From Candidatus Omnitrophota bacterium (GTDB lineage Bacteria > Omnitrophota > Gorgyraeia > Zapsychrales > Zapsychraceae): a stretch of DNA of 64,000 nt. The stretch is taken from positions 702,361 through 766,360 of the forward strand of contig JBFWOS010000001.1 in assembly GCA_050250375.1 (NCBI GenBank), in the 5' to 3' direction. Each line of letters starts with the position of its first letter. Position 1 is the first letter of the stretch. Both the position numbers and the translations under genes were made by a program. The notes beneath the pieces were generated by a model that searched no databases, was not told the DNA's origin, and saw nothing but the letters and a program-made list of their open reading frames with translations. Shown here in pieces: positions 4,990-50,639 of the stretch.

Positions 4990-6090
4990 TTACACAAACC
5001 TTTTTAACGTGTCACACACCATATCGATATCATCCCGGGTCATGTGCGGATACATCGGGAGTGACAGGATTTCATTGGCTATCTTTTCCGAGACCGGCAG
5101 GTCGCCCGTCTTATAACCCGCGTCCTGATACGCCTCCTGCAGATGCACGGGGATCGGATAATGGATCAGCACGGCGATCTTGTTGGCCAGCATCTGTTCG
5201 ACGACTTCATCCCGCTTCGGGACCCTGACGGCGTAGGTCTGGAAAACATGCGTCCGGTCCTTCAGGACATTCGGCGTAATCACACTCTTGCATTCGGCCA
5301 GCTGTTCGTTGTAATACGCCGCGTTGTCCGCGCGCATACGGTTCCACTGGTCCAGATGTTTTAATTTCGCCGACAAGACAACCGCCTGGACGGTATCCAG
5401 GCGTGAATTATATCCCTTGATCTTATGGTCGTAACGGTTCTTGCGCCCGTAATCCCTTAACATAAAGATCTTGTCAAAAATCTCCTTGCTGCTGGTGACA
5501 ATCATACCCCCGTCGCCGAACGCGCCCAGGCTTTTGGTCGGATAAAAACTGAAACACGCGACATCCCCCAATGATCCGACCTTTTGGCCGTTATAGGCCG
5601 CTCCATGCGATTGGGCGGCGTCCTCAATCACGGCGATGTTATGGTCGCGGCAGATCGCGCTGATCTCGTCCATGTTTGCCGGCTGTCCGTACAGATGGAC
5701 AACGATCACCGCCTTGGTCCTGGGCGTAATCGCCTGTTTAAACTTGACCGGGTCGATATTGTACGTCTCCTCTTCAATATCGACAAAAACAGGAGTTGCC
5801 CCGGCATACGACACGCACAAGGCGGTCGCGATAAATGTGTATGAAGGCAGGATCACTTCATCCCCCACGGTGATATCCAGAGCCGCGATCGCCAGATAAA
5901 GCGCGTCGGTGCCTGAATTGACCCCGACCGCGTATTTCGCCTGGCAGTATTTGGCAAAGGCGACTTCAAAGTCCTTCTCTTCATCGCCGAGGATAAAATT
6001 CCCTTTTTCAAAAACTTTTTTTAGACCAATATCGATTTCATCCCTGATGAGTTCGTATTGTTGTGAAAAATCGATAAATTTGACGCTCAT
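4990..6090 (-). CDS. DegT/DnrJ/EryC1/StrS-family PLP sugar aminotransferase
   Basis: Catalytic lysine motif FSFYPTKSLGAFGDGG. Length and overall layout are typical of the family. Confidence 0.85.
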   Translation of the reverse strand: MSVKFIDFSQQYELIRDEIDIGLKKVFEKGNFILGDEEKDFEVAFAKYCQAKYAVGVNSGTDALYLAIAALDITVGDEVILPSYTFIATALCVSYAGATPVFVDIEEETYNIDPVKFKQAITPRTKAVIVVHLYGQPANMDEISAICRDHNIAVIEDAAQSHGAAYNGQKVGSLGDVACFSFYPTKSLGAFGDGGMIVTSSKEIFDKIFMLRDYGRKNRYDHKIKGYNSRLDTVQAVVLSAKLKHLDQWNRMRADNAAYYNEQLAECKSVITPNVLKDRTHVFQTYAVRVPKRDEVVEQMLANKIAVLIHYPIPVHLQEAYQDAGYKTGDLPVSEKIANEILSLPMYPHMTRDDIDMVCDTLKRFV

Positions 6091-7169: not shown

Positions 7170-7215
7170 GGTAGGATTGTAACACCAGGGCCGGACATTT
7201 GTCGATCAGTGAATG

Positions 7216-7269
7216 AAAAAGGTGACGGACACCGTTTTTATATTGAAAAACGGTGTCCGTCACCTTTTT
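7216..7269 (-). terminator. Rho-independent terminator, bidirectional-capable hairpin
   Basis: Perfect inverted repeat AAAAAGGTGACGGACACCGTTTTT-atattg-AAAAACGGTGTCCGTCACCTTTTT. It lies directly after the methyltransferase stop at 7272 and is flanked by U-runs on the transcribed strand. Confidence 0.75.
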
Positions 7270-7271
7270 CT

Positions 7272-8351
7272 TTATTTCCTCACAATGTAATAATAATTGA
7301 GCGGATCGTGGTCCAGTTCCTTGATGTCGACCGAAGTAAACCCCGCTTCCTTCATCAGCGTCGTGGCCAGTTCCTTCCCCCACATGGCCCCGAGCCCTTC
7401 TCCGCCCTGGGCCAAAGACACACTCATGCAATGCGTGCAGGAAATGGTGTAAATGAACGGGGCCAGCGGATGGTCCAGGTTCTTTTCCACGTGGCTGGAC
7501 CCTTTGATGTCCTGGCAGAAATACGTGCCGTCTGGTTTAAGCGCGCGGTGGATGTTGGCGAGCATCTTGCGCGGTTTGGCCTGGTCGTGCACCGAATCAA
7601 AAGTGAAAATGACGTCGAACGTTTCTTTGTCATTAAACGCGGCGGCGTCCTGGACGGCAAAATCGATATTGCGTAATCCTTCCTCATGCGCCGCGGCCCT
7701 GGCTTTGGCAACAGCCTCGGCCGAAAAGTCGTAACCGGTAAACCGGCTTCTGGGGAAAGCCCGGGCCATCGCGATGAGCGCGCGCCCGCTGCCACAGCCG
7801 ACATCCAGCACCCGGATGCCTGACTCCAGCTGTTCCTTGAGACCATCGACCAACGGAAGGAGTTTTTCAACCAGCGGCGACACCACGGACTGATAACTTT
7901 CTTCGGCCATGACCTCGTGAAAACGGTTGTATTCCTCGTAACGCAGTCCGCCGCCTTTCTGAAAACTCTCCACGATGCGGTCCTCGACGTACGCCATGAC
8001 ATGGATCCACTGCGCGGTCACCGCGATGTTGTTGGGCGCGTTCCCGCGCGTCAGCCACGCCGCGTGCTCCGCCGGCAGGACGTACGTCTTCTTGACGGGA
8101 TCGTAATCCACGATGCGGCCCGTGACCATGGCCCCGAGCCATTCCCGCACATAACGCTCCTGAAGCCCGGCGGCATCGGCGATCTGTTGACTGGTAGACG
8201 GCGTAAGTTTCGCCATCGTGTCAAAGAGCCCGGTGCGGTAACCGATGCTGATCATCAGCCCCACGGCGCTCTGGTTGAGGATGCCGACACAGCGTTCGGC
8301 AAACGCGTCTTTTTTGGATGGATCGATTACGACTTGACAACTGTTACACAT
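7272..8351 (-). CDS. Class I SAM-dependent methyltransferase with an N-terminal winged-helix dimerisation domain
   Basis: VLDVGCGSG motif. AAGGAG lies 6 nt upstream of the ATG of MCNSCQ..., so the track N-terminal extension up to 8435 is 5-prime UTR. GC-rich relative to its neighbours. Confidence 0.8.
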   Translation of the reverse strand: MCNSCQVVIDPSKKDAFAERCVGILNQSAVGLMISIGYRTGLFDTMAKLTPSTSQQIADAAGLQERYVREWLGAMVTGRIVDYDPVKKTYVLPAEHAAWLTRGNAPNNIAVTAQWIHVMAYVEDRIVESFQKGGGLRYEEYNRFHEVMAEESYQSVVSPLVEKLLPLVDGLKEQLESGIRVLDVGCGSGRALIAMARAFPRSRFTGYDFSAEAVAKARAAAHEEGLRNIDFAVQDAAAFNDKETFDVIFTFDSVHDQAKPRKMLANIHRALKPDGTYFCQDIKGSSHVEKNLDHPLAPFIYTISCTHCMSVSLAQGGEGLGAMWGKELATTLMKEAGFTSVDIKELDHDPLNYYYIVRK

Positions 8352-8501
8352 AACATGCTCCTTTCTCAGGCGCGGCCCCGCTTCCGGGACGGCCCTAATT
8401 CCGTTTGTGGTTATCGGTTTGTTCCTGAAAAACATACAGGGTGTTTAAGGTTAAGATGGTGAATAATTCGGTCATGGTTTTCCTCCGTTTATCGTTTGAA
8501 T

Positions 8502-8657
8502 CTAAACTTCAATCCAATGGGTTCCGGGCATAGGCGCTGCAGACTTAAAAAGGTCTGCGGTGATCTCCACCCCGGGAAATTTTTCCGCCACCAGGTCATT
8601 AAAAGCGTCGATGTCAAAATAGGTTTTGTCTTCAATCCGGTAAAATATACGTTTCAT
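8502..8657 (-). CDS. Small hypothetical protein of 51 aa (start chosen at the internal Met with a GAGGAA SD)
   Basis: The track ORF 8502..8726 contains the TetR-type operator palindrome in its 5-prime part, so I chose the downstream start MKRIFYRIEDK. Confidence 0.3.
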   Translation of the reverse strand: MKRIFYRIEDKTYFDIDAFNDLVAEKFPGVEITADLFKSAAPMPGTHWIEV

Positions 8658-8674
8658 CAGAATTTCCTCAAAAA

Positions 8675-8690
8675 GACCGACCAGTCGGTC
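8675..8690 (-). promoter_or_regulatory. TetR-type operator palindrome GACCGAC-CA-GTCGGTC, copy 2, downstream of tetR and upstream of the small ORF and methyltransferase
   Basis: 16-bp perfect palindrome. A near-identical copy sits in the tetR promoter at 9320-9334. Confidence 0.5.
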
Positions 8691-8709
8691 ACAACTGCCC
8701 AAAAAAATT

Positions 8710-9306
8710 TTATCCCTTTTCTCCAATCAATGGCCGGATCGCCCTGGCCGCCTGGTCATACGGCCACGGGTCCTGATAAATCTCCGCATTGGTTAGCGCC
8801 CCGATCTGGATCAACAGGTACTGGTCCGCGACAAAATCCGGGTCAAGTTCCTTGTATTTCGGGTCGGATTCGATCAGGTCGCGCACCATTTCCCTGATCA
8901 CACCGCGGTAGACCTCATAGTGGTGTTTGGCCTCCTTGCGGATAGGGCTTTTGCCGTCCGTGACCTCGGCCGCCATGTTCGAAAACGCGCACCCGCGGTA
9001 CTCCGTCGAGACCATCCAGTCCCGCATGATCGTGTTGAACCCGATGTACTTCTGGTAAGGGTCCTTGATCCGGCCGACCATTTCCCGCAGTTCATACATC
9101 TCTCTGGCGTGGCGGTTGCGCATGTACGCGGCGCCCAGTTCGTCTTTGGTGGCAAAATGGGTATAAAACGTCCCCTTGGACACCCCGGCCTCATCGATGA
9201 TCTGCTGGATGCCGGTGGCGTTGTAACCCTGCCGGTAAAAAAGGTCGGTGGCGGCTTCGAGGATCCTGTCTTTGGCTGTTCCTTTTATTTGGCTTGTCTT
9301 GTTCAT
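8710..9306 (-). CDS. TetR/AcrR-family transcriptional regulator
   Basis: N-terminal HTH ILEAATDLFYRQGYNATGIQQIIDEAGVSKGTFYTHF. 198 aa. Confidence 0.85.
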   Translation of the reverse strand: MNKTSQIKGTAKDRILEAATDLFYRQGYNATGIQQIIDEAGVSKGTFYTHFATKDELGAAYMRNRHAREMYELREMVGRIKDPYQKYIGFNTIMRDWMVSTEYRGCAFSNMAAEVTDGKSPIRKEAKHHYEVYRGVIREMVRDLIESDPKYKELDPDFVADQYLLIQIGALTNAEIYQDPWPYDQAARAIRPLIGEKG

Positions 9307-9309
9307 GCT

Positions 9310-9346
9310 CTAAATATACGACCGACTGGTCGGTTTGTCAAGGGGT
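9310..9346 (-). promoter_or_regulatory. Sigma70-like promoter (TTGACA-17-TATATT) whose spacer holds the palindrome ACCGAC-tg-GTCGGT; predicted autoregulated, near-leaderless tetR promoter
   Basis: Read on the minus strand: cTTGACAaaccgaccagtcggtcgTATATTtagagcATG. Confidence 0.55.
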
Positions 9347-9435
9347 ATTTTAAAAAACTTTGCGGGAGGCGCGGGACAGGACGTTTGTCGAACATGGATA
9401 ATGACCAACTGCCCTCTACCTTACCTTTTCCACAT

Positions 9436-9906
9436 CTATTTTTTCTTTATCCTCAAATGTTCCTCGGGACCAAATCTGTTAAAAATAGAATGATAAATAA
9501 CGCTTCCTGGCAATCGCCATTCATTATAAGGATAACCGTCTTTCCCAATCTTTGAAATTTTTGGTTCTCCAAATTCCTTTTCAAAATAGTCGTTGAATTC
9601 TTTAAATGATTTATCTAGATCAATATAAGAAGACCGAAAGAATTCCAACTCTTTTAGAAGGCCCTTTCTTCTTGGCTCAAAATGAAATCCTAAATTATGT
9701 TTAAGTCCACCCAATGATTCGCAATAACTTTTGGCATAATAACCTTCAGTGACATGATTAAGCGTCACTTTATTATTTTCAAATATTTCAACAAACAGAT
9801 CTTCTTTAATATTCCAAGGAATAAATAAACTTGGCTTATCTATCTGAAATCCATTTCTTATATCCATAACAACCTTAAAAGAGAAGGGGATTTGTGCCGG
9901 CCACAA
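9436..9906 (-). CDS. Hypothetical protein (AT-rich, no recognisable domain)
   Basis: 156-aa ORF in a low-GC segment. Confidence 0.45.
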   Translation of the reverse strand: MWPAQIPFSFKVVMDIRNGFQIDKPSLFIPWNIKEDLFVEIFENNKVTLNHVTEGYYAKSYCESLGGLKHNLGFHFEPRRKGLLKELEFFRSSYIDLDKSFKEFNDYFEKEFGEPKISKIGKDGYPYNEWRLPGSVIYHSIFNRFGPEEHLRIKKK

Positions 9907-9929
9907 AAAAACGTGCCAGTTTGTGCCAG

Positions 9930-10490
9930 CTATCTATTTTCTTCAATCCAATCATGCGCAAGCTTATTAATTCGTTTAATCTGTTCTGGGGTTAAGCTTC
10001 GCATGATTTGATCTCGTAAACCACGGGCTCTCCATTTGGCCTGCATATCTGAAGATAGCTGCGTGTAAAACCGAGCAATCTCGAGCCAGAAATATGCTTT
10101 TTCAAAAGATTGTTCAATATTATCGCCGTCTCCATACATTACTGCCAAATTAATCATTCCCCTTGGATCTCCGGCATTGGCAGCCTCTTTATATAGAGAT
10201 ATTGCTTTTTCATTATCTTCTGCAACACCTAAACCCAAGTCATACATATAGCCTAAGTTAGTTTTCGCATATGATAAGTCCTGATCCACAGCCTTTTGAT
10301 AATACATAACAGCCTTCTCATAATCTTGCGGAACACCATCTCCAAATTGATATCTGCTTCCCATATTATTTAACCCAGCACCTTCTCCCATCGCCGCTAA
10401 TTTTTGATCCTCAGATAAACTAGAAGCAGTCACAGTTGCGCAGCCACTTAGAAGTAAAGAAAAAATTAACAAATAAATTTGCTTGCTCAT
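9930..10490 (-). CDS. Sel1-repeat lipoprotein
   Basis: Lipobox LLLSGC. Tandem Sel1-like repeats (GVPQDYEKAVMYYQKAVDQ, GVAEDNEKAISLYKEAANAG). Confidence 0.75.
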   Translation of the reverse strand: MSKQIYLLIFSLLLSGCATVTASSLSEDQKLAAMGEGAGLNNMGSRYQFGDGVPQDYEKAVMYYQKAVDQDLSYAKTNLGYMYDLGLGVAEDNEKAISLYKEAANAGDPRGMINLAVMYGDGDNIEQSFEKAYFWLEIARFYTQLSSDMQAKWRARGLRDQIMRSLTPEQIKRINKLAHDWIEENR

Positions 10491-10557
10491 AATATTTTAT
10501 CCTACACTTATACGATGGACACACCGCTTAAGTAGTGGCATTACATTACTTAACTAC

Positions 10558-10697
10558 TGGTCAATCCCCTTCAACTTCAAAAAATCGCGGACGGTTTGGA
10601 CGACATAATCCATCTGGTTCAATTCAAGGTCCTGGTGGATGCCGATATGGGTGCCGCGGGCGGAGCAGTATTCGGCTTCCCGGGACGTACTTAATTA
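10558..10697 (-). pseudogene. Relic of the last ~43 codons of a DegT/ColD-family gene, a diverged copy of the 3-prime end of the gene at 12222..13475
   Basis: Translates to EAEYCSARGTHIGIHQDLELNQMDYVVQTVRDFLKLKGIDQ*. The intact gene ends EAEYCAGHGTHIGIHQDIELNQLDYVAQTVRDFLKAKGINR*. About 80 percent nt identity over ~140 bp. In frame directly behind the Fic stop codon. Confidence 0.6.
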
Positions 10698-11894
10698 TTG
10701 ATTCAGTCCGCTGTCCTCTTTTAATGAGTAACTCGTGCTGCGGCCGCCGGCCGGGTCCTTAACCAAAACACCTTTTCCAACAAGATCAAGAATGTCCCGA
10801 TGAGCGGTATCCTGCGAACACTTGGTGATTTTCGCCCATTTTGAAGTGGTCAGTTTACCCTCAAAACTGTCAAACAACTTGTTGATCATTGTCTTCTGGC
10901 GTTCGTTAATGGATCCAGCCGGAAGAGAATCCCAGAAGCGCACCTTTTTGAACACACCGGACAATGTGGTTTCGGTTGTGTCCAGCGCCCGGCCCAAACA
11001 ATTTAAAAACCACACCAGCCACGCCGTGATATCAATGCCGTCTTTTGCGGCATGGATACTTTTCTGTGTCTTTTCAAGAATATCGTAATAGGCATTCCGT
11101 TCCTGCCGGATATGGTTCGACATGCTGTAAAAACGCTCCCGGCTGCCGTCGGCGCGCGCCAGCTGCATATCGGCAATGGCCCGGGCTATACGGCCGTTGC
11201 CGTCATCAAAAGGGTGAAGCGTCACGAACCACAAATGCGCGATACCCGCCTTGAGCACGGGGTCCAAGTCCTTCGATCCACCTGTGGTGAGCGAAGGCCT
11301 TCGACCTTGCGCAGGCCGAGCCGAACCATTGAACCAAGCCAGAAATTCCTTCGTTTCACTCTTGAGGCGGCCGGCTTCCGGCGCTTCATAATGGACCTTC
11401 TCCCGGCCAACAGGACCGGACACAACTCGCATGGGGCCATGACGGTCGTCGCGCCAGGCGCCAACGGTAATTTTATGCATTCCACTGTGTCCGGTCGGAA
11501 ACAAACCGGCCTGCCAGCCAAACATTCGATCCTGGGTAAGGGGCTTGTCGAAATTCTGAGTGGCATCGAGCATCATTTCCACCACCCCGTCCACGTGACG
11601 ATCAGACGGCACAAGCCCTCCAATGTCCATACCCAGCCTTCGCGCGATGGATGAGCGCACTTTGGCCGGATCAAGGACCTCCCCCTCAATTTCACTGCTT
11701 TTTAAAACGTCAAGAGTGAGCGTCTGTAAAACGGCCTCCGAACGCAAAGAAAATCCCAGCGTTTCCATGCGTCCGATCAATCGCCCCTGCCGGTTGCGCA
11801 CGGGACCTAATATCGACGTGATTTTTTCATGATCCCATGTAAACGTCGGCCAAATATCTAATTCATGGATGTATTTCATCCCGGTTCCCTTCAT
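10695..11894 (-). CDS. Fic-family protein (DUF4172-type N-domain, Fic core, C-terminal winged helix)
   Basis: Canonical Fic motif HPFDDGNGRIARA. The true start is probably the second Met (MKYIHELD, 11879), which is preceded by AAGGGAA. Confidence 0.9.
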   Translation of the reverse strand: MKGTGMKYIHELDIWPTFTWDHEKITSILGPVRNRQGRLIGRMETLGFSLRSEAVLQTLTLDVLKSSEIEGEVLDPAKVRSSIARRLGMDIGGLVPSDRHVDGVVEMMLDATQNFDKPLTQDRMFGWQAGLFPTGHSGMHKITVGAWRDDRHGPMRVVSGPVGREKVHYEAPEAGRLKSETKEFLAWFNGSARPAQGRRPSLTTGGSKDLDPVLKAGIAHLWFVTLHPFDDGNGRIARAIADMQLARADGSRERFYSMSNHIRQERNAYYDILEKTQKSIHAAKDGIDITAWLVWFLNCLGRALDTTETTLSGVFKKVRFWDSLPAGSINERQKTMINKLFDSFEGKLTTSKWAKITKCSQDTAHRDILDLVGKGVLVKDPAGGRSTSYSLKEDSGLNQ

Positions 11895-11919
11895 GTTTTA
11901 AGCGGCAAACAAACGACAC

Positions 11920-12142
11920 ATTCTCCGCATTTTCTGCGTAGAATATAACACATATTCTCCGCATTAACAAGCGGTATTTCAGACTAAAGAAGATGATCTT
12001 GTCGTAAAAAATACCTGCTTTTGCGGCAGAGTAAATTGATTATATATATGTAAGATATTAAAATATAACAACTTGAGATGGGTTGTTTAAACCACGTGTA
12101 TACGCTTAACCTTTGCGGAGATTAGGCCCATTATTCTCCGCA
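11920..12142 (-). promoter_or_regulatory. Array of ATTCTCCGCAT direct repeats (11920, 11954, 12133) plus one inverted partial copy (TGCGGAGAT at 12114) in the Fic upstream region
   Basis: An 11-mer is identical in three copies with similar flanks (acaCATTCTCCGCAT / acaTATTCTCCGCAT / catTATTCTCCGCAT). An A/T-rich stretch lies between them. Confidence 0.5.
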
Positions 12143-14088: not shown

Positions 14089-15076
14089 ATTCTCCGTTCG
14101 GTTGATAAAAAATAATCTGGCTGCCCAGGCTCTCGAATTCAAACGGTACCAGGAGCAAATCCTTTAATTTTTCCCTGACCTTCTTCTGTTTCTCCGGGGG
14201 GACAAATAATAATACGAACCCGCCTCCGCCCGCCCCGAGCAATTTTCCGCCGACCGCGCCGGACGCCTTGGCCGAGTCATAAATCTCGTCAATCATCGGG
14301 GTCGAAATCTTGTCGGAGAGTTTTCTCTTGATCTGCCAGCCCTCATCGAGGAGTTCGCCGAATTCTTTGAGCCGGTCTTCCTTGAGCAGTTCAAGCCCCC
14401 TGACCGCCATTGCGTGCATGGCCTTCAACTCCGGTTTCTTTTTGGGGATATTTTTAATCTGATGGGCCGCGATCACCGAGGCGGTCCGGGAAAACCCGGT
14501 AAAAAATAACATCAAATGGTCCTGAAACCGCTTCAAGCGGTCCGAGGGAATAATCACCTTGTTGACCTGCAGAAGCTGGCTCCCGCCGAATTCAATAAAA
14601 TTAAATCCTCCGTAAGCCGCCAGCGCCTGGTCCTGGCAGCCGACATTTTCATGGCACATCTGCTGTTCGATATAAATGGCCTCTTCCGTCAGTTTGGACT
14701 TGCTCGTCATCCGTCCCAGCAGGGCGTAAAGGCTGTTTAACAATCCGACGGTGAATGAAGAACTTGAACCCAGGCCGGTCCGGGCCGGCAAATCGCCGTC
14801 GTGGTGGATCTCGATCCCTTTATGGATGTCCAGGTATCGAAGGACTTCCCGCACGGCCGGGTGATCAATATCATTGATTTCGGAAACATGTTCCATCTTG
14901 GAGTAGATGATCCTGGACTTATGGTCGAAGAACGGCGGCAGGTACCGGCAGGTGATATAACAATATTTATTAATCGTCGTTGCCAGGACAGCCCCGGGGT
15001 TGTTTTCAAACCAGGCCGGATAATCCGTCCCTCCTCCGAAAAACGACATGCGAAATGGTGTGCGGCTGATGATCAT
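14066..15076 (-). CDS. GHMP-family sugar kinase (HddA-like D-glycero-D-manno-heptose 7-phosphate kinase / fucokinase-like)
   Basis: MIISRTPFRMSFFGGGTDYP N-terminus. GHMP motif PARTGLGSSSSFTVG. Confidence 0.8.
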   Translation of the reverse strand: MIISRTPFRMSFFGGGTDYPAWFENNPGAVLATTINKYCYITCRYLPPFFDHKSRIIYSKMEHVSEINDIDHPAVREVLRYLDIHKGIEIHHDGDLPARTGLGSSSSFTVGLLNSLYALLGRMTSKSKLTEEAIYIEQQMCHENVGCQDQALAAYGGFNFIEFGGSQLLQVNKVIIPSDRLKRFQDHLMLFFTGFSRTASVIAAHQIKNIPKKKPELKAMHAMAVRGLELLKEDRLKEFGELLDEGWQIKRKLSDKISTPMIDEIYDSAKASGAVGGKLLGAGGGGFVLLFVPPEKQKKVREKLKDLLLVPFEFESLGSQIIFYQPNGEYDNAGES

Positions 15077-16584
15077 ACCGGCTTCCTCTCCTCCAGGATT
15101 TTTCTCTTAAGTTTGATCGTGGTTGAACGGACCGTCTCATCATAGGCCGTCTGGCCGAATTTGGTTTTGAGCAGATCCAGGAATTGGCTGTTCGTGTGAT
15201 ATTTCATCCAGGCCTCGTCCCGGAAGGCGAGCACTTCCTGCGCCGAGAGATATTTCGTCGGCAGCGGCAGCTGATGATAGGAATGCTGGGAATACCCCGT
15301 ATACGTGTCCGGAAGTTTCCAGCCCTTTTCAAGCGCCATGCCGTACAGCGGACTGCCGGGGTACGCCATAGCCGAATAAAAATTGGCCTCTTCGGTGTTC
15401 ATCTCCATCGCCAGGTCCAGGGTCGTCTGCATGCTCTGGTGATCATCCTCGGGAAGGCCGAAAATGTAATTGGCGATGACGTTGATGTCATGCTCCCGGA
15501 TTTTCCCGACCACGTCCCTGATGTCGACATCTTCAAACCGGCCTTTGGTGACATCCTTGCGCACCCGGGTATTGCCGCTTTCGATGCCCAGGGCCAGCCA
15601 ATTGACACCGGCTTTTTTGAGGGTCTCGAGAAATTTTTCTTTGACCGTGTCCACCCGGGAATAACACCAGATGTTGAATTTGTATTTCCGTTCGATGATC
15701 AGTTCACACAGCTTCATAAAATGATTTGAGTTCAGGACGAACAGTTCGTCGGCGATCTTGATATTGGTGATCCCGCGTTTGGCGAGTTCATCAAATTCTC
15801 CAATGATGAATTCCGGGTCCCAGTAACGGAACACGGCACTTCCGTCGGAATACTGGTTTTCCTGCCGGTTGATGATGTTGATCATGCAAAACGAACATTT
15901 CATCGGGCAGCCGAGGCTGGTGTACAAGGCCGCGAACGGCTGGCGTTGGGAACCGTTCGGGTACGAATGCCACAGGCTTGTCCGGTAATTTTTCATCGGC
16001 AGTTTGTCCCAGGGAATACCCGGCAGTTCTTTGGGCAGGTCCGCCTTCTCGACGATCGGGGAGGGCGCGTTTAACACGACTGTTCCGTCCTGCCTGTATC
16101 CGAGTCCGGGAACGGCACTAAGTTTGTCTTTCAAATTGGTCTTAAGCAAAGTGGAAATCGTGTAAACCCCTTCGTTCTGGCAGACAAAATCGATGCACGC
16201 GTGATTCTCCAGCACTTCGCGGGATAACGCGGCGATGTGGCCCCCGACAAACAGAATCTTTACCTCCGGCAAGATATTCCTGAGCTCCTGCGCGAGCGCG
16301 ACGGCGCCTTCCATATTCTGCGAACTCGCGGACGGCTGCTGGCCGTAAACGACAAAACAGGCCACCTTCGGCTTTATCTCCTTGATCTTCCGGGCTGATT
16401 CTTCATCCGTTAAGTGCAGGGCCTCACAGTCGAGGATGTCCGCCGAAAACCCTCTCGAGAGACAGTGGCTGGTCAGCATACCGGCCCAGATCGGCGGCTC
16501 AATGGCAGAAAAATCTTTGCTTAAATCCTGGTAGATTTTATGCGAGGCATTGGGATGAACAAATAAAATATCAAGCTGTCCCAT
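15073..16584 (-). CDS. Cobalamin(B12)-binding radical SAM protein (class B rSAM)
   Basis: N-terminal B12-binding Rossmann-like domain (KILFVGGHIAAL). CPMKCSFC radical SAM cluster motif. 503 aa. 4-nt overlap with the kinase gene. Confidence 0.85.
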   Translation of the reverse strand: MGQLDILFVHPNASHKIYQDLSKDFSAIEPPIWAGMLTSHCLSRGFSADILDCEALHLTDEESARKIKEIKPKVACFVVYGQQPSASSQNMEGAVALAQELRNILPEVKILFVGGHIAALSREVLENHACIDFVCQNEGVYTISTLLKTNLKDKLSAVPGLGYRQDGTVVLNAPSPIVEKADLPKELPGIPWDKLPMKNYRTSLWHSYPNGSQRQPFAALYTSLGCPMKCSFCMINIINRQENQYSDGSAVFRYWDPEFIIGEFDELAKRGITNIKIADELFVLNSNHFMKLCELIIERKYKFNIWCYSRVDTVKEKFLETLKKAGVNWLALGIESGNTRVRKDVTKGRFEDVDIRDVVGKIREHDINVIANYIFGLPEDDHQSMQTTLDLAMEMNTEEANFYSAMAYPGSPLYGMALEKGWKLPDTYTGYSQHSYHQLPLPTKYLSAQEVLAFRDEAWMKYHTNSQFLDLLKTKFGQTAYDETVRSTTIKLKRKILEERKPV

Positions 16585-16587
16585 AAC

Positions 16588-16707
16588 TCAATACTGCCTA
16601 GTTAGTAGGGCACCCGCCAAAACTTTCTGTTTTGGCGAGGCCTCGCCCAATGAACAGCGTTCATTGGGCGGGTTAGGGTGAATAAATAGAATGTCTATCT
16701 GGCTCAT
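16588..16707 (-). repeat. Nested-palindrome element plus a relic duplicate of the first 12 codons of the rSAM gene
   Basis: Three overlapping perfect palindromes: GCCAAAAC-tttct-GTTTTGGC (16616-16636), GGCGAGG/CCTCGCC (16634-16647) and CGCCCAATGAAC-agc-GTTCATTGGGCG (16644-16670). Upstream at 16707-16672 is ATG AGC CAG ATA GAC ATT CTA TTT ATT CAC CCT AAC = MSQIDILFIHPN. The real gene starts MGQLDILFVHPN, and the differences are mostly at wobble positions. Confidence 0.5.
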
Positions 16708-16715
16708 CGGCTTGT

Positions 16716-17663
16716 TTAAACGTTACTGAGTTGGGATGTCACCTGCCGGACCTTCGGGATCACCGTGTAGCCTTTAATCAACTCGGTAATACCGTCCGCC
16801 AGGGAGACATCGGGCCTGAAGCCCGTCTTTTCAATTTTTTCATTACTGACGATATAATCCCTCTTATCAGGATCTTCGCCGGCATGGGATTCACTAAAAT
16901 TAAACCCGGGCACCTGTTTTTTGATTTCTTCGCACAGCTGCAACTTGCTGATATTCGCGTCACTGAGACCTACATTATAGGGTTCATCCTTCATCTTGTC
17001 AAAATGGTCGAGGGCATGCATGAACGCCTTGGCAATATCACGGACATGGATAAAATTGCGCATAAAATGGGCCTCAAACAATTCAACCGATCCGTCAAAG
17101 ACGGCCTTGTACGTAAAATCATTCACCAGAAGATCAAGCCGCATGCGCGGCGACACACCAAAGGCCGTGGCCAGGCGCAACGTGATCCCCTCTCCGGCTT
17201 CAAGGACCATCTGTTCGGCCTGGACCTTCAGCCGGCCGTAAACCGAGATCGGTTTTAACGGTGTTTCCTCCGTGCAGAACTTTCCTTTTTCCCCGATGCC
17301 GTAACCGCTGTTGGTCGTCGGATAAATGATCTTCTGTCCCGGACGGCGCAGTTTGATGATCTCCCTGAGGGCGTCAATTATAATTTCCTCGGCTTCTTTA
17401 GGATGACGGTCGCAGATCGGCGCTCCGGTCAGACACGCCAATGGAAAAACGGCATCGGCCTGCGGAACCAGCCGCTTTAACAACGCCGCGTCCCGCGTGT
17501 CGCCCCGGACAATGGCCAGGCCTTTATGGTGACAGCAGTCCAACAGCGACGTCTGGTTATACATAAAATTATCCAGCACCGTCACGTTATGCCCGGCCTG
17601 CAAAAGACGCGGGACCATAACCGACCCCAGATATCCGGCCCCGCCGGTGATTAATATATTCAT
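16716..17663 (-). CDS. NAD(P)-dependent epimerase/dehydratase (extended SDR)
   Basis: NILITGGAGYLGS Rossmann motif and YGRLK catalytic dyad. Start taken at MNILITGG, giving an ATGA overlap with the upstream gene. Confidence 0.8.
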   Translation of the reverse strand: MNILITGGAGYLGSVMVPRLLQAGHNVTVLDNFMYNQTSLLDCCHHKGLAIVRGDTRDAALLKRLVPQADAVFPLACLTGAPICDRHPKEAEEIIIDALREIIKLRRPGQKIIYPTTNSGYGIGEKGKFCTEETPLKPISVYGRLKVQAEQMVLEAGEGITLRLATAFGVSPRMRLDLLVNDFTYKAVFDGSVELFEAHFMRNFIHVRDIAKAFMHALDHFDKMKDEPYNVGLSDANISKLQLCEEIKKQVPGFNFSESHAGEDPDKRDYIVSNEKIEKTGFRPDVSLADGITELIKGYTVIPKVRQVTSQLSNV

Positions 17664-23359: not shown

Positions 23360-26300
23360 CTACAAACAATTTCCAGATTCACTGCCTGCATTGATAGTAG
23401 CTGATCCACTGATACTACAATCTCCAACAGTGGCCGCTTGCATATGAAAATTATTTGTTACAGTAACTTCTGAAGCTGCACTTAAGATGGCGTCGTCACC
23501 ACCAATCATATCAAATGAATCCGCGGTAATCTCTGCTCCCAAATTTATTTTGACGTCACTTGTTGACGTTGACCCCGTTGAGATCATTGAAGCACCCTCA
23601 GTAACTGTGACTTCGGATTCTGTACCAATCTCCACCTGTCTGTCGGCGCTCATTTCGAGGCTGGCAGCGGTAATCGCCGAGCTAATGCCAATCAATGCCT
23701 TACTGTTTGAACTCGTTCCCGTTGAAATGATCTCAAGTTCATCGTCAACATCCAAAATCATACCTGGACCTGTAGAGGCCTCTTGATTTGCTTCAAGTCG
23801 AACACTACCCGCATGAATTGTTGAAGTCTGCCCCATATGGGCTTTATTAGTGGAAGAGGTGCCCAGCGATTTAATGAGAAGCGGCCCGTCAACGTCGACT
23901 TGGGCGTTGCTGTAGATTTGTGCTATCTTGTATGCTTGCAAGGTCAATTCCGTGGCATTAATCGTTGAATTTGAACCCAGCTCTGTATCCCCGGTTTCTG
24001 AAACTAACGTCACGAATGTCCCGTTGATTGTCATTCCGTTCGAATTTGCGACCCCGGTTCGCCCATCAATGCAAATCCTTTCACCTGTGAGAACTTTTCC
24101 GGTTGCTATGGTTACCTTACAGGGAGAATGAATGTCAATGTTATCCATCGTGACATTGTAGTTAATTGTTAAATTTCTGTAATAAGTTCCCGTATAATCA
24201 TAATCAACAAGATAGTCTTCCAACTGTGAATCATTTGTAACGGTCGTTGTTGATGAACAGGTAACGCCAACCAGGTAGTCAGTTTTTATAGTACATGGCT
24301 CTTGCATAGGGTCGTTAATTGTGATCGTCAAATCCGGTGATCCTGGTGCATCTTCCCTATTTCCAACTTGGTCGGTTGCTATAGTATAAAACGAATATGT
24401 AGAACCGTTTACACCGACGAAGGACGTGAACGTTCCCGTGGTGGTTAAGGTTTCAGCATACGGACCTGAGTTTTCAGATACATAGATGGTGTATTCTTTT
24501 ATCCCCGAATGCGCGTCACTTCCTGACCACGAAATGTCAAAACTGGTCAAAGTGCCCGTTGATGCCATACTGTTCATGGAACTGGACGGTTTTGTATCAT
24601 CAATGGTGTTCAGCCAGGTATTGGTGGTGATTGGACTATTAGTGTCAAAAACTATGCTCGCACTATTGATTATTTCATCATTTGTTTCTACTGAATCTTT
24701 CGCCCGCACGGAAAATGTCACAAACCCATCGCCTTCGGGAGGATTATCATTAGGCGGTAAGAATCCAGCATTCGGATCATCCGTAAACATATGTGACTCC
24801 GGATCAAGAGAAATAAATTTCCACACGACGTCACCGGAAGCTGTGTTTAATGCAACCTCTATCCTCAAGATTAAGTCATTGTCAGGTCGCAAATCTACCT
24901 CGGTTATAAACTCTTGAATTCCGCTAGGCAGATTGATTATTTTTTCCGCAACTCCAATAGGTCCTAATTCAAAAGTACTTAAATCCAGAACCGTTGTATC
25001 TAGTTGGTCCGAAACGATAACTTCCTGCGCGGGTGCGCTTGCCGATTCGATATTCTCAAAATAAATTATATATTGCAAAGGCTGTCGTTTAGCAATATAT
25101 TTTTCTGAACCAAAACCCTGCGGACCAACAATAGCGTTAGGGTCTCGTGAAGTCACAAGAAAAATTATTTTCGCTAACTTATTTGCACCCCACCAAAAAT
25201 CCCAAGCTGTACTAACAACTCCTGAAGTGAGTTCCCATGTCACAATAGCTTTATCTATTAGCTGATTAAGTTCAGTCCATTTCAATACTTCATTAAACCC
25301 ACAGGTCGCTTTGCCCAGAGTCTGACCACAAAGTGATATCCACGGTTGTTCCCTTTGTTCCACAACACCATTGACCAATTTTCCATACGTTAGCAAAGAA
25401 TAAAATCCCAAACAAGATGTGTCGTATGGCGTTTCGATAGAACATCCCGTACCATTTGAGCTCCATTCACAAAATGTAACATTCGCCATAAGCACGGGTA
25501 AATTTTCTCTAATCCTGGAAACTAATGCAGGCATTTCTCCTGGTCTAATAGGTCTCAGGCCATATAAATGTTCTATTTGTATAGTTTTCGTTCCACCTCC
25601 GGGTAAATCAATCGTAACTTCTCCATCCTTGATGTCATTAAAAGGTATCTCAACAGGTCCCACCCCTCTTAGATTTAGGTATGTTTTATCATCCAATCGT
25701 GTTCCAATATAACCTTCCCCTTCAGGTTTTATGCTGGAGAACTCAGAATCATATATATTAAACCAGTCCAGAATACCATCCGGGGCATCTTCATTCGCCT
25801 TGTACCTCTGATTGGCATATTTTAGAGTTGTTGAAGGATTATTTGTTGCAGTTAGCGAGTCAGGCAATGGAAGTGTATTGTTTGTTGGTTCAAAATGTGT
25901 GACATTGTCACCAAAGCCAAAATCAATCACAGTACTACCAAAATTAAGACTGATGTTTCCAGAAGATAACGACGATTTTATTCTAATGGGAAAACTACGA
26001 GATGAATGAACCGGCAAATTTGCAACTATAAAACCTGCAACTGTGTCTTCAGCCAAATTCTTAAATGAGTCTGAGAATTCTGGGATCAGATAATCGACCT
26101 CATCAGGTATACCAACAAATAATTCCGCTGAAGTAATATCATTGTTTCCAATATTTCCATATGTAACCAAATAAGTTTGCTCTCTGTCGGGACGCATGTC
26201 TGTTCTACCAATAATATCCATCCACAGCCCACTTGGTGCTCCATCTTCAACGGTAAAAGCATTTTCACTTGTTATGGTATTTCCGGAATTTATTATCACA

Positions 26301-28135
26301 ATGGTCCAATCACCCTGTGCTTTTCCAGCTAGATCAAATGTCGCTTTCAACACTAGACCGTTATTTAGAATTTGAAGAAAGTCCCCTTCTATATCGTCTT
26401 CGCCAGATTTGGTTAACATAACATGGGTTCCTTCATCAAATACGCTGCCTGAAAACGTAATTGTTAAATTCCCAGTATCACCCCCTCGATCCGGATTGAT
26501 TGCCAACACGGTTTGTTGCTGAACAACTGTCCCATCATCACCATCTTCACCAACACCGTTTCCGCCGGTTGCGGTCGTAGTTCCGGTAAATGTTTCATTT
26601 TGACGGTGATAAATAGCTATTCGTCCACCGCCACCACCGCCGCCGGCGGCTGAACCGCCTACTAACTGGCTGTTTCCACCATTGGCCGTAATTACTCCGC
26701 TCCCGGTAAAATTCTCCGTAATGACATATATACTACCACCCGATCCGCCGCCAGACTGACTCCCCTGCGGCAATCCCATCCCGCCATTTGCAGATAATAC
26801 CCCGTTTACTGTTAACGTATCAGCAATATTTAGTTGAATCTTTCCACCACCTGTGCCGCCGCTACTAGGCGTGTAGACATTATTAATTGTAAATCCCGGT
26901 CCGGCACCCCCGCTGCCAAAATCTACCGGGGCTGTTGGTGAACCGTATGCAATCCCTCCCTGAGCTGTGCCACCTTCGCCGCCATACCCACCGCCTCCGC
27001 CGCCTTGCCCCTGATTCTCTAATGCGGCCCCAACTCCCATCCCGCCTTTGAACCCTTTGGAATCCGCGGAGACTTTTGAACCGGAAGTTATGGTGAGATT
27101 ATTGGCTTTTAAGAACAGGTTCCCCTCAATCAACGAGGTTCCTGTGACCGTTACGTCTTTGATATTGAAAGTTTCCTCACCATTAAGAAAAAATGACGAA
27201 GCGCCATCCAAAATTAACTGGGTCCCTGAAATAGTTACAGTCCCATCCGTAGTTGTCACGGAAGCATCATCGAGAGTAATGGTATCAAATTCAAGAGGAC
27301 TGTCATTCAACTGAAACCGCCATTGATGTCCAGCGATAAACTCATTGTTAGCCATGTCAATAAATCCGACCGTTCCGTCACCACCATCACCGCTTTCACC
27401 CAATTCTGTATGCCCGTGCCCACCTATGGCCCTTGCTGAACCGGTAAATGTTGACGATTCATAGTATACGGCAATGCGCCCGCCGCCACCACCGCCGCCG
27501 CGTAATGAACCTCCGTTTCCTCCATTAGCAACGATATCCCCTGAACCGGCCAGAGTACTTGTCGTAATATAAATTCCGCCGCCCGCGCCGCCGCCGCTTC
27601 TAAGATCACACTGAAATACACTTTCCCCATTAGCCGAAAGAGTCCCGCTCACCGTCAATGTATTTGCAACATCAAGCCAAATTGCGCCCCCGCCTCTGCC
27701 GCCGCTTTGATTACCGCCGCACACTGCCCCGCCCCCGCCGCTTCCCATTTGAAATGGCTGTGTGGCTGATCCATACCAAGGTCCTTTAGCCGACAGGATA
27801 GGCGTCGTTCCACCATTCCCACCGTGCCCGCCGCCACTTCCCCCAGTCACCGATGCTGAACCTGCCCCGGGGCCCTGATTGGCATTGTATCCCTTTTTAT
27901 CGGCGCTGATCCTTGATCCCGATGAAACTGTTATATTATCGGCGGTGATGCGGACTGTTCCTTCCAGCGTCAACGCCGCGTTGTTGGATACGGTCACATC
28001 ATCATAGGTGTATGCGCCGGTTGTAAGAGTGGTGTTGGTGGTTACGGTCAAGTCTGCGGCGAAAGCTGAATGACTAATTAAGAGAAAAGAAAGCAAGACG
28101 AAGGATTGTATAAATTTGAAAGGCCGTAGAATCAT
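23360..28135 (-). CDS. Giant secreted glycine-rich beta-solenoid protein with Ig-like/FN3 domains (adhesin-like)
   Basis: Signal peptide MILRPFKFIQSFVLLSFLLISHSAFA. Two tandem ~230-aa modules rich in GGxGG rungs (e.g. ANGGNGGSLRGGGGGGGRIAVYY / ANGGNSQLVGGSAAGGGGGGGRIAIYH). A clear FN3 domain (DISWSGSDAHSGIKEYTIYVSENSGPY...). Ser/Thr-rich beta-helix-like C-terminus. Confidence 0.75.
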   Translation of the reverse strand: MILRPFKFIQSFVLLSFLLISHSAFAADLTVTTNTTLTTGAYTYDDVTVSNNAALTLEGTVRITADNITVSSGSRISADKKGYNANQGPGAGSASVTGGSGGGHGGNGGTTPILSAKGPWYGSATQPFQMGSGGGGAVCGGNQSGGRGGGAIWLDVANTLTVSGTLSANGESVFQCDLRSGGGAGGGIYITTSTLAGSGDIVANGGNGGSLRGGGGGGGRIAVYYESSTFTGSARAIGGHGHTELGESGDGGDGTVGFIDMANNEFIAGHQWRFQLNDSPLEFDTITLDDASVTTTDGTVTISGTQLILDGASSFFLNGEETFNIKDVTVTGTSLIEGNLFLKANNLTITSGSKVSADSKGFKGGMGVGAALENQGQGGGGGGYGGEGGTAQGGIAYGSPTAPVDFGSGGAGPGFTINNVYTPSSGGTGGGKIQLNIADTLTVNGVLSANGGMGLPQGSQSGGGSGGSIYVITENFTGSGVITANGGNSQLVGGSAAGGGGGGGRIAIYHRQNETFTGTTTATGGNGVGEDGDDGTVVQQQTVLAINPDRGGDTGNLTITFSGSVFDEGTHVMLTKSGEDDIEGDFLQILNNGLVLKATFDLAGKAQGDWTIVIINSGNTITSENAFTVEDGAPSGLWMDIIGRTDMRPDREQTYLVTYGNIGNNDITSAELFVGIPDEVDYLIPEFSDSFKNLAEDTVAGFIVANLPVHSSRSFPIRIKSSLSSGNISLNFGSTVIDFGFGDNVTHFEPTNNTLPLPDSLTATNNPSTTLKYANQRYKANEDAPDGILDWFNIYDSEFSSIKPEGEGYIGTRLDDKTYLNLRGVGPVEIPFNDIKDGEVTIDLPGGGTKTIQIEHLYGLRPIRPGEMPALVSRIRENLPVLMANVTFCEWSSNGTGCSIETPYDTSCLGFYSLLTYGKLVNGVVEQREQPWISLCGQTLGKATCGFNEVLKWTELNQLIDKAIVTWELTSGVVSTAWDFWWGANKLAKIIFLVTSRDPNAIVGPQGFGSEKYIAKRQPLQYIIYFENIESASAPAQEVIVSDQLDTTVLDLSTFELGPIGVAEKIINLPSGIQEFITEVDLRPDNDLILRIEVALNTASGDVVWKFISLDPESHMFTDDPNAGFLPPNDNPPEGDGFVTFSVRAKDSVETNDEIINSASIVFDTNSPITTNTWLNTIDDTKPSSSMNSMASTGTLTSFDISWSGSDAHSGIKEYTIYVSENSGPYAETLTTTGTFTSFVGVNGSTYSFYTIATDQVGNREDAPGSPDLTITINDPMQEPCTIKTDYLVGVTCSSTTTVTNDSQLEDYLVDYDYTGTYYRNLTINYNVTMDNIDIHSPCKVTIATGKVLTGERICIDGRTGVANSNGMTINGTFVTLVSETGDTELGSNSTINATELTLQAYKIAQIYSNAQVDVDGPLLIKSLGTSSTNKAHMGQTSTIHAGSVRLEANQEASTGPGMILDVDDELEIISTGTSSNSKALIGISSAITAASLEMSADRQVEIGTESEVTVTEGASMISTGSTSTSDVKINLGAEITADSFDMIGGDDAILSAASEVTVTNNFHMQAATVGDCSISGSATINAGSESGNCL

Positions 28136-39501: not shown

Positions 39502-39576
39502 AAAAAAAACTGGTCACAAGCTGAACAACCCAAAATACAGATATTATGTATTTTGAATTTTCCGACATTGTGACCA
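39502..39576 (-). terminator. Putative terminator: long-range stem TGGTCACAA...TTGTGACCA enclosing an inner 8-bp hairpin, followed on the minus strand by a U8 run
   Basis: Lies between the DUF1015 gene stop and the accD start. Confidence 0.45.
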
Positions 39577-50553: not shown

Positions 50554-50579
50554 GGCCGAATACCTCTTTTTTGTGATTT

Positions 50580-50617
50580 CCTTTCATAAGGCGGATTTAA
50601 AGCCGCCTTATGAAAGG
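50580..50617 (-). other. 15-bp perfect stem hairpin (CCTTTCATAAGGCGG-atttaaag-CCGCCTTATGAAAGG) between hsp20 and clpB, not followed by a U-tract
   Basis: Seen directly in the sequence. Sits 27 nt upstream of the clpB ATG and its AAGAGG SD. Confidence 0.5.
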
Positions 50618-50639
50618 ATACTTTCCTTGATTATAGTGG

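Follow-up and report, generated by a model that had tools for sequence, protein, structure and literature searches.

Homology-facilitated illegitimate recombination integrates DNA through homology at one end and through an illegitimate joint at the other (PMC3240628). It is the proposed source of orphaned gene ends in Rhs, contact-dependent inhibition (CDI), and type VI secretion system (T6SS) loci (PMC5361080). Here we describe what probably is a scar of this kind in an uncultured Omnitrophota bacterium, represented by a metagenome-assembled genome (MAG). The window, the whole 64-kb stretch of DNA that was analysed, carries a sugar-nucleotide operon in which the gene for a B12-binding radical SAM enzyme (rSAM) follows that for an NAD-dependent sugar epimerase/dehydratase (hereafter, epimerase). 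Between them lie a second, diverged copy of the first 12 rSAM codons, here called the ghost start, and a block of two strong hairpins. We favour, with moderate confidence, an out-of-register join with a diverged homologue at the epimerase–rSAM junction. The arrangement is unique to this lineage and is not a conserved regulatory device.

The proposed event resembles those that gave rise to Rhs and CDI orphan modules and to the effector-immunity arrays of Vibrio T6SS loci: a diverged segment has one homologous and one illegitimate end, and a resident fragment is displaced (PMC5361080, PMC3240628). A cluster of the surface-glycan type that bears other marks of gene insertion is a further point in common. 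In those systems, however, each event displaces a 3′ end or an entire immunity gene, and repeated events build arrays, whereas here the piece is a single 36-nt 5′ end. Unlike theirs, this piece keeps its start position and so becomes an upstream open reading frame (ORF), and no donor or homologous anchor was found.

The hairpins call for a second comparison, with repetitive extragenic palindromic (REP) sequences, bacterial interspersed mosaic elements (BIMEs), and miniature inverted-repeat transposable elements (MITEs), including E. coli REP, Neisseria Correia elements, and Pseudomonas REPINs. Here, too, a short, stable palindrome lies between cistrons, with paired, related hairpins and a possible 5-nt direct repeat; related genomes have true dispersed hairpin repeats at the same junction. 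Unlike those families, the present unit shows no multi-copy distribution in 73 kb, and it lies within a translatable relic ORF. The locus combines known kinds of feature: a relic gene end left by recombination, and an intercistronic palindromic insert.

Two starts in one reading frame

The minus strand carries nearly all long ORFs of the window, and both genes concerned lie on it. Gene calls were taken from the source record (contig JBFXCX010000003.1, GCA_050181705.1). The epimerase gene (16716..17663; 315 amino acids; Pfam PF01370 and a source-record call) is the direct upstream neighbour of rSAM and ends with the stop codon TAA (16718-16716). The working rSAM gene (15073..16584; 503 amino acids; Pfam PF02310 and PF04055) starts with MGQLDILFVHPN, 131 nt beyond the epimerase stop. 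This interval opens with an 8-nt spacer, ACAAGCCG (16708..16715, minus strand), a short junction of the ancestral type. The ghost start follows: an ATG (at 16707) and 11 codons specifying MSQIDILFIHPN (16672..16707, minus strand), a copy of the rSAM N-terminus. The full 39-codon ghost ORF, MSQIDILFIHPNPPNERCSLGEASPKQKVLAGALLTRQY, runs through both strong hairpins and occupies 16588..16707 (minus strand), its TGA stop (16590-16588) included. After the TGA come GTT and then the rSAM ATG at 16584, so that the ghost stop lies 4 nt upstream of the real start and in frame with it. The two ATGs are 123 nt (41 codons) apart and are thus in frame; 87 nt, including the two tandem hairpins, separate ghost codon 12 from the real ATG. 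This layout bears out the first-pass annotation, which had placed a second ATG with 11 codons in frame upstream of rSAM, and had ended the ghost frame at a TGA just before the real ATG and in frame with it.

Over the first 12 codons, the ghost and real starts agree in 26 of 36 nt and in 9 of 12 residues. Of the 10 mismatched nucleotides, four are at first and six at third codon positions, with none at the second, and the only residue changes are G/S, L/I, and V/I; the description of these differences as almost entirely synonymous or conservative stands. Shuffling the 36-nt ghost DNA and comparing it with the real 5′ end gives p about 0.0005. A profile of the rSAM N-terminus, made from the 119 closest homologues with the window's own protein excluded, was searched against all stop-free stretches in six frames of the whole 64 kb. 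The real gene scored best and the ghost second (E=0.004, 14.7 bits), followed by a third match at E=8; the alignment to the ghost spans model positions 1-13 only. By both measures the likeness of the 12 codons far exceeds chance expectation, the level at which the first-pass annotation would have abandoned it.

The rSAM family provides a scale for this divergence. Homologues of the window's rSAM protein number in the thousands; members of the top 120 clusters are 77-88% identical to it over their full length and alike at the N-terminus, and every cluster among them with a named source is from Omnitrophota. The identical 503-residue product is on record in three assemblies. The family N-terminus, M-x-Q-[LI]-D-I-L-F-[IV]-H-P-N-A, is nearly invariant, and each of the 12 ghost residues is used by several family members. 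To simulate neutral decay, 10 substitutions were introduced at random into the real start, within codons 2-12; in 200,000 trials, the share with every residue allowed in the family was 1e-5. For codons 5-12, the ghost and real starts agree at 18 of 24 nt, and the means against orthologues from other species are 17.3 and 17.9 of 24.

The divergence pattern and the simulations together indicate that each copy evolved as a functional start, either in a lineage or in a gene of its own. An idle ghost copy has not yet decayed, which implies that the two were brought together recently enough for it to persist. Sequence comparison thus supports the view that the ghost is a genuine rSAM start that derives from a diverged homologue rather than from recent duplication in place. 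The same figures support the earlier proposal insofar as it invoked recombination, with a homologous allele as the origin of the ghost.

Two further candidates were rejected. By eye, the ghost seemed to extend past codon 12 (ASPK with ASHK, GCCTCGCCAAAAC with GCCTCGCATAAAATC, AGALLTRQ with AGMLTSH). However, the profile stops at position 13, and the nucleotides past ghost codon 12 match the rSAM 5′ end at chance level in local and global alignment (p=0.43; p=0.36-0.78). A fold-back or template-switch origin of the hairpin arms, with rSAM codons 9-17 as the source, is suggested by the CCCAATG and GTTCAT common to both; it was dropped as well, since much of this sharing is an automatic result of the self-complementarity of CAT and ATG.

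The hairpin block and the ancestral junction

Folding of the minus-strand RNA, a check that the first-pass annotation had proposed, yields two stable hairpins. In hairpin 1 (16644..16670), 12 perfect bp close a 3-nt loop; the minus strand reads CGCCCAATGAAC GCT GTTCATTGGGCG (-22.6 kcal/mol, z=-5.6). Hairpin 2 (16609..16642; -22.7 kcal/mol, z=-4.5) has 9 perfect bp (16615-16637) and a 5-nt loop, and as RNA lengthens to 14 bp, which include a single G-U pair and are interrupted by a single bulge. GGCGAGG/CCTCGCC (16634..16647), a perfect palindrome of 14 nt, bridges both hairpins, whose arms are related (CGCCCAATGAAC vs CGCCAAAAC). The 69-nt hairpin core folds with -42.9 kcal/mol (z=-7.7), and the two-hairpin fold accounts for 82% of the ensemble. 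Of the mutually overlapping palindromes described previously, the overlap is real and the 8-bp stem is not: the third stem has 9 perfect bp. The window holds only three further perfect hairpins of at least 9 bp. Perfect hairpins at 39531-39555 and 50579-50618 (9-bp and 16-bp stems) are intergenic and unlike the block studied here.

The block can be divided in two ways. One division recognizes a 62-nt palindromic unit (16612..16673) with inverted ends ACCCGCC/GGCGGGT, which are automatic in a palindromic unit. The motif CCCTA flanks it, at 16674-16678 and, past one G, at 16606-16610, a pattern that was spotted post hoc. This pair could be a target-site duplication; the probability of its arising by chance is estimated at roughly 1%. 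The other division separates the first 53 nt of the 87-nt block (hairpin 1 and the left half of hairpin 2), which bear no resemblance to the rSAM gene from codon 13 on (p=0.36-0.78), from the 34 nt just upstream of the real ATG (16585..16618, minus strand). Judging from its sequence, the latter stretch may be a degraded copy of the epimerase gene 3′ end. Its best local alignment with the epimerase tail of one relative (L088; L numbers denote related loci) scores 12, against 8.2 +/- 1.2 for shuffles (p=0.010, post hoc and one of several tests). The likeness would suit an incoming junction fragment, and is suggestive.

Further copies of the block were sought within and beyond this genome. None is present in the 64-kb window, nor in 10 kb beyond its low end (about 8.6 kb of it new), a total of about 73 kb; within that extent, the proposed check for genomic repeats of the palindrome block found no further copy. 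When the 131-nt spacer was compared by blastn with 86 related loci, only the ghost part matched, to rSAM starts (for example, 30/36 nt to that of L011), and the hairpin block had no match. An exact scan for hairpin 1 in species-representative genomes, which did not return the source locus, found one unrelated Flavipsychrobacter hairpin; the same scan of viral contigs found only an unrelated giant-virus ORF, and a scan of viral contigs for hairpin 2 gave no match. The suggestion of a REP/MITE-like element is therefore unproven. Paired stem-loops of 27 and 34 nt, each about -22.6 kcal/mol and with related arms, fall within the 20-40 nt typical of REP/BIME units, whereas the many dispersed copies that characterize those families are absent from the 73 kb. 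The inverted ends and the CCCTA pair with its extra G (noted post hoc) may be MITE-like, and no other copy was found. The nearest relatives' junctions are "empty", yet also lack a second start, so that they are not exact empty sites.

The suggestion of an RNA switch found no support either. An Rfam search of 16000-17300 (E<=10) returned only two noise matches to small nucleolar RNA models, both outside the element. A cobalamin riboswitch or other known RNA, considered because the block precedes a gene for a B12 enzyme, was thereby rejected. The hallmarks of a riboswitch (a matching Rfam model, conservation, covariation, and alternative structures) are missing: no homologue occurs in the 86 loci, and the two hairpins dominate the ensemble, which leaves no competing fold. 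A terminator scan of the element found no terminator-like site. The hairpins are followed by GAGGCC and GCCCUAC; without the U-tract that accompanies the GC-rich hairpin of an intrinsic terminator or attenuator, neither is an intrinsic terminator. Finally, no promoter-like site was found within the element, contrary to a scenario in which a promoter there would reduce it to simple intergenic spacer; the only strong site lies 270 nt upstream of the ghost ATG, within the epimerase gene.

Comparison with orthologous loci, another check that had been proposed, sets the insertion against the ancestral state. The comparison set comprised 80 related loci from metagenomes together with the loci of the nearest relatives, of which 71 non-redundant loci were used for spacer counts. 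The epimerase gene is directly upstream of rSAM in nearly all 80. In the four nearest relatives, which have 77-90% amino acid identity in these proteins, the spacer from epimerase stop to rSAM ATG is 6 nt (L003), 16 nt (L005, which equals L087), 8 nt (L088), and 8 nt (L089), with no hairpin and no second start. The N-terminal profile detected no ghost in the 800 nt upstream of rSAM in 74 other loci (best E=7). L005 has the AGCCG-ATG context in common with the ghost, and its first codons match the ghost at 21/24 nt vs 18/24 for the real start. Given the 6-16-nt spacers of the nearest relatives, the ghost stands at the ancestral, tightly coupled start. The 87-nt block and the working start are thus additions specific to this lineage.

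Among the 71 non-redundant loci, 43 have a spacer of at most 18 nt or an overlap, 5 have an inserted gene, and 23 have a spacer of 26-255 nt. Most of these 23 long spacers contain long hairpins of unrelated sequence (z -2.5 to -9). According to the gene calls, every other checkable junction in this part of the operon overlaps; the simplest reading is that the epimerase–rSAM spacer is the sole place that tolerates such elements. The window's block resembles this class of junction hairpins in form, and its membership in a repeat family is unproven.

Several observations concern these spacers in their own right. A dispersed REP-like hairpin, GG-ATTCCCG(N4-11)CGGGAAT-GACA, is present in 16 copies in 12 of the 86 loci, in both orientations and at various intergenic sites (examples: L032:2327-2351 and 5018-5042; L029:81 and 1460; L039:518; L080:2461; L061:434 and 4161). 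This family sits at the epimerase–rSAM junction in L032, L039, and L080, and has no copy in the window. Right after a copy of the REP-like hairpin, the L032/L035 spacer (2350-2500) contains about six tandem units of 23-24 nt (GGAATGACAAGTTTTTAAATGTT). In L027, a further copy of the spacer lies at a distance of 3 kb. Spacers of 83-126 nt with long imperfect hairpins lie upstream of rSAM in L007, L013, L027, L038, L062, L065, and L068; their arms consist of reiterated, strand-asymmetric short motifs (such as GTCAC/GGTGAC, CACAAG/CTTGTG, and GGTTAATGG), and these seven spacers have their architecture in common, not their sequence. L003 and L004, separate assemblies from an 87%-identical relative, have a common starting point within the 3′ end of the epimerase gene, 70 nt upstream of rSAM, which may point to strain variation, or to a repeat, at the corresponding junction of that organism.

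Origin of the duplicated start

In the ancestral arrangement, the rSAM ATG stood a few nucleotides past the epimerase stop, exactly where the ghost ATG and its 12 codons now lie. An out-of-register join would then have linked a segment to a diverged, homologous counterpart of this junction. At one end, the join would be illegitimate and lie right after codon 12, where CACCCTAAC meets CCGCCCAATG, possibly at CC(C/T)AA(C/T) microhomology; at the other end, it would rest on ordinary homology within or past the rSAM gene. Such homology-facilitated illegitimate recombination would leave the gene's first 36 nt in duplicate, with both versions shaped by purifying selection and the resident start reduced to a relic. 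The hairpin block would be spacer DNA brought by the incoming allele, or a small palindromic element inserted separately. What a recombination scar should leave at the junction, a partial duplicate, is indeed present: two selection-shaped versions of codons 1-12, one of them at the ancestral position.

Several points weigh against this explanation. No donor tract with a distinct phylogenetic affinity was seen. Mosaic ancestry was sought in codon-position divergence from L005, in the best relatives of each gene, and by an epimerase protein search, without signal. The flanks show no breakpoint, third-position divergence from L005 being 0.41 for the epimerase, 0.42 for rSAM, and 0.41 for the kinase gene; the closest-relative ranks also are alike (89, 87, and 86% identity for the epimerase vs 88, 87, and 83% for rSAM). 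Given this uniformity, a foreign tract would have to be short, or to come from a lineage as distant as those relatives. No donor was found, and the hairpin block is unmatched in the 86 loci and the scanned collections. The relatives disagree on which copy is the resident: the real start is nearer to L003, L088, and L089 (19/24 vs 17-18/24, counted by hand), and the ghost is nearer to L005. The 34-nt stretch resembles an epimerase tail only weakly, and the resemblance vanishes in a global comparison with the tail of the window itself (p=0.25). A relay of ribosomes from the ghost ORF to the real rSAM start, as outlined below, is probable but purely inferred. Moreover, an open frame is not by itself evidence of selection, because 27 further codons would stay open by chance about 1 time in 4.

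A different origin for the hairpin block is possible, if clearly the less probable: it may be a small, mobile REP/MITE-like palindrome, inserted into an existing relic rather than delivered as spacer of an incoming allele. The 62-nt unit with its inverted ends ACCCGCC/GGCGGGT and CCCTA on both sides (with an extra G on the right) would fit, as would the arms CGCCCAATGAAC and CGCCAAAAC, related like those of paired REPs; Omnitrophota relatives do carry dispersed hairpin repeats, at this very junction in L032, L039, and L080, and L027 has its second copy. Yet neither the 73 kb nor the 86 loci hold a second copy, the collection scans gave only unrelated matches, the CCCTA pair was noticed after the fact, and such an insertion leaves the duplicated start unexplained. 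In-place tandem duplication of about 123 nt across the junction, with decay of the inner copies, would yield the observed series of epimerase tail, spacer, first rSAM head, filler, possible tail-like stretch, and second rSAM head, and would fit their spacing, the ATGs being 123 nt and the tail-like stretches about 129 nt apart. The sequences strongly disfavour it, and we regard it as very unlikely: the heads differ at 10 of 36 nt, none of them second positions, with family-allowed residues throughout (1e-5 of simulations); they are as diverged as orthologues from other species; the stretch due to hold codons 13-29 shows no similarity to them; and the four nearest relatives have no trace of the event. 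That an assembler joined two co-existing strain variants is hardly probable. The source is a MAG, and palindromes have interrupted assembly here: one Logan contig of another run (L091, SRR27751816) stops halfway through a hairpin at 7215-7270, and the contigs of L003 and L004 each begin 70 nt ahead of rSAM. Nevertheless, the NCBI assembly (868-kb contig) equals an independent Logan assembly over 19,344 nt, spacer included; a third contig (>1 Mb) bears the same protein; and the sequences that meet after codon 12 share no word long enough to confuse a de Bruijn assembler.

Two further explanations assign the arrangement a function. One, which we consider unlikely, posits a selected device for tuning rSAM expression: the ghost ORF would encode a leader peptide, and the hairpins would work as an attenuator, as an RNA switch, or as a stabiliser. 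Leader-peptide attenuators and riboswitches offer a parallel, in that a short ORF and stable RNA hairpins overlap in front of a biosynthetic gene. In favour of such a device, the fold is highly stable (z=-7.7), the would-be leader ORF runs across it and ends 4 nt from the real ATG, hairpin spacers recur at the junction, and a conserved promoter-like site lies 390 nt upstream. Unlike those systems, the locus offers no terminator U-tract after the hairpins, no alternative pairing (82% of the ensemble is in one fold), no counterpart in Rfam, and no conservation: no ghost in 74 other loci, and no relative of the block. The relatives' hairpin spacers share no sequence and occupy the operon's only non-overlapping junction, where tolerance of insertions suffices to explain their recurrence. 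The other explanation, programmed bypass, is scarcely credible. Ribosomal take-off would be from the ghost Asn codon, AAC, and landing on the real one, AAT, 123 nt on, producing MSQIDILFIHPN-ASHK..., in the manner of T4 gene 60 and the mitochondrial byp elements. The same tRNA reads both codons, the 12-bp hairpin begins 1 nt past the take-off site, and the product would be a normal family member. Of the features of bypass (matched codons, a hairpin, a stop at take-off, and a non-coding gap), only the AAC/AAT match and the hairpin are present: no stop codon follows the take-off site, nothing is conserved, and the gap is more than twice as long as in known cases. Because the gap holds a complete start with its own codons 1-12, bypass is also unnecessary.

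Translation, promoter, and operon context

The real rSAM ATG, as the first-pass annotation had remarked, lacks an obvious Shine-Dalgarno (SD) sequence. The best candidate is a poor one, AGG at -15; this is not unusual, as about half of the genes in the window also lack an SD of at least 4 nt. The surroundings of this ATG are unstructured (z=-0.4). The enzyme presumably is made from this downstream ATG at 16584. Ribosomes that end epimerase translation would restart at the ghost ATG, translate 39 codons through the hairpins and so melt them, stop at the TGA, and restart 4 nt on. Because the ghost keeps the spacer, ATG, and early codons of the relatives' real starts, the same mode of initiation should load ribosomes here. 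A close parallel is with termination-reinitiation upstream ORFs: an ATG a few nucleotides past a stop, an upstream ORF that stops 4 nt before an SD-poor ATG, and structure that the ribosome would melt. Unlike those, the present upstream ORF is the accidental product of a gene fragment. With many genes of this genome lacking an SD, coupling may also be dispensable.

The epimerase gene contains a perfect TTGACA-17-TATAAT (16974..17002, minus strand), over the conserved peptide FDKMK..PYNV. Nothing else in the window's first 20 kb resembles a promoter as closely. The site lies about 390 nt upstream of the rSAM ATG and 270 nt ahead of that of the ghost. Of 67 related loci, 42 have both hexamers in perfect form, and the Asp codon within the -35 hexamer is GAC in 48 of 60, against a 36% baseline (both counts ignore phylogeny). 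This suggests selection on synonymous sites for a promoter internal to the epimerase gene. The TTGACA-17-TATAAT sequence is a probable internal promoter, and its transcript would carry the ghost ORF and the hairpins as a leader. It is a doubtful further step to suppose that the ghost ORF has been selected as a relay, and that junction hairpins across Omnitrophota are functional regulators that set the epimerase-to-rSAM ratio below the conserved promoter.

The operon is of the sugar-nucleotide/glycan type, in a cluster of the surface-glycan type. In transcription order, its genes encode a carbamoyltransferase, a split transketolase-like pair, a GDP-fucose-synthase-like reductase, and the NAD-dependent epimerase/dehydratase, followed by the B12-binding radical SAM enzyme, an HddA-like heptose kinase, an HddC-like nucleotidyltransferase, and a DegT-type aminotransferase. 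A block of about 5 kb (window about 7272-12100; Fic/DUF4172, Sel1 repeat, TetR, methyltransferase, and small ORFs) separates the DegT aminotransferase gene from a Glyco_transf_9 (heptosyltransferase) gene; the two are adjacent in L003. Its GC content is slightly reduced, and it probably consists of inserted accessory genes. We read the extra 5 kb, relative to L003, as further remodelling of a recombination-prone locus in this lineage. At the edge of the block, a perfect 25-bp hairpin (7215-7270) with T-runs on both sides looks like a bidirectional terminator. Elsewhere in the window, a 1591-residue ORF (23360-28135, minus strand; DUF7619 in the source record) has a GC content of about 0.41, markedly below its surroundings.

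As a single locus this one carries little weight: the event is an ordinary one, unusually easy to read here. It nevertheless provides a clean, datable example of operon-junction remodelling, with the old start intact and the working start 123 nt downstream, behind strong RNA structure. It also is a natural experiment on translational coupling and on the tolerance of structure in intercistronic regions.

The comparative by-products are more generally useful for the annotation of Omnitrophota genomes, above all the conserved promoter in the epimerase gene and the catalogue of junction hairpin inserts. One junction of a widely conserved sugar-nucleotide operon repeatedly gathers unrelated hairpin inserts, some of which belong to dispersed REP-like families. 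In most lineages, moreover, the coding sequence upstream of that junction contains what probably is a perfect sigma-70-type promoter, with synonymous codon choice to match.

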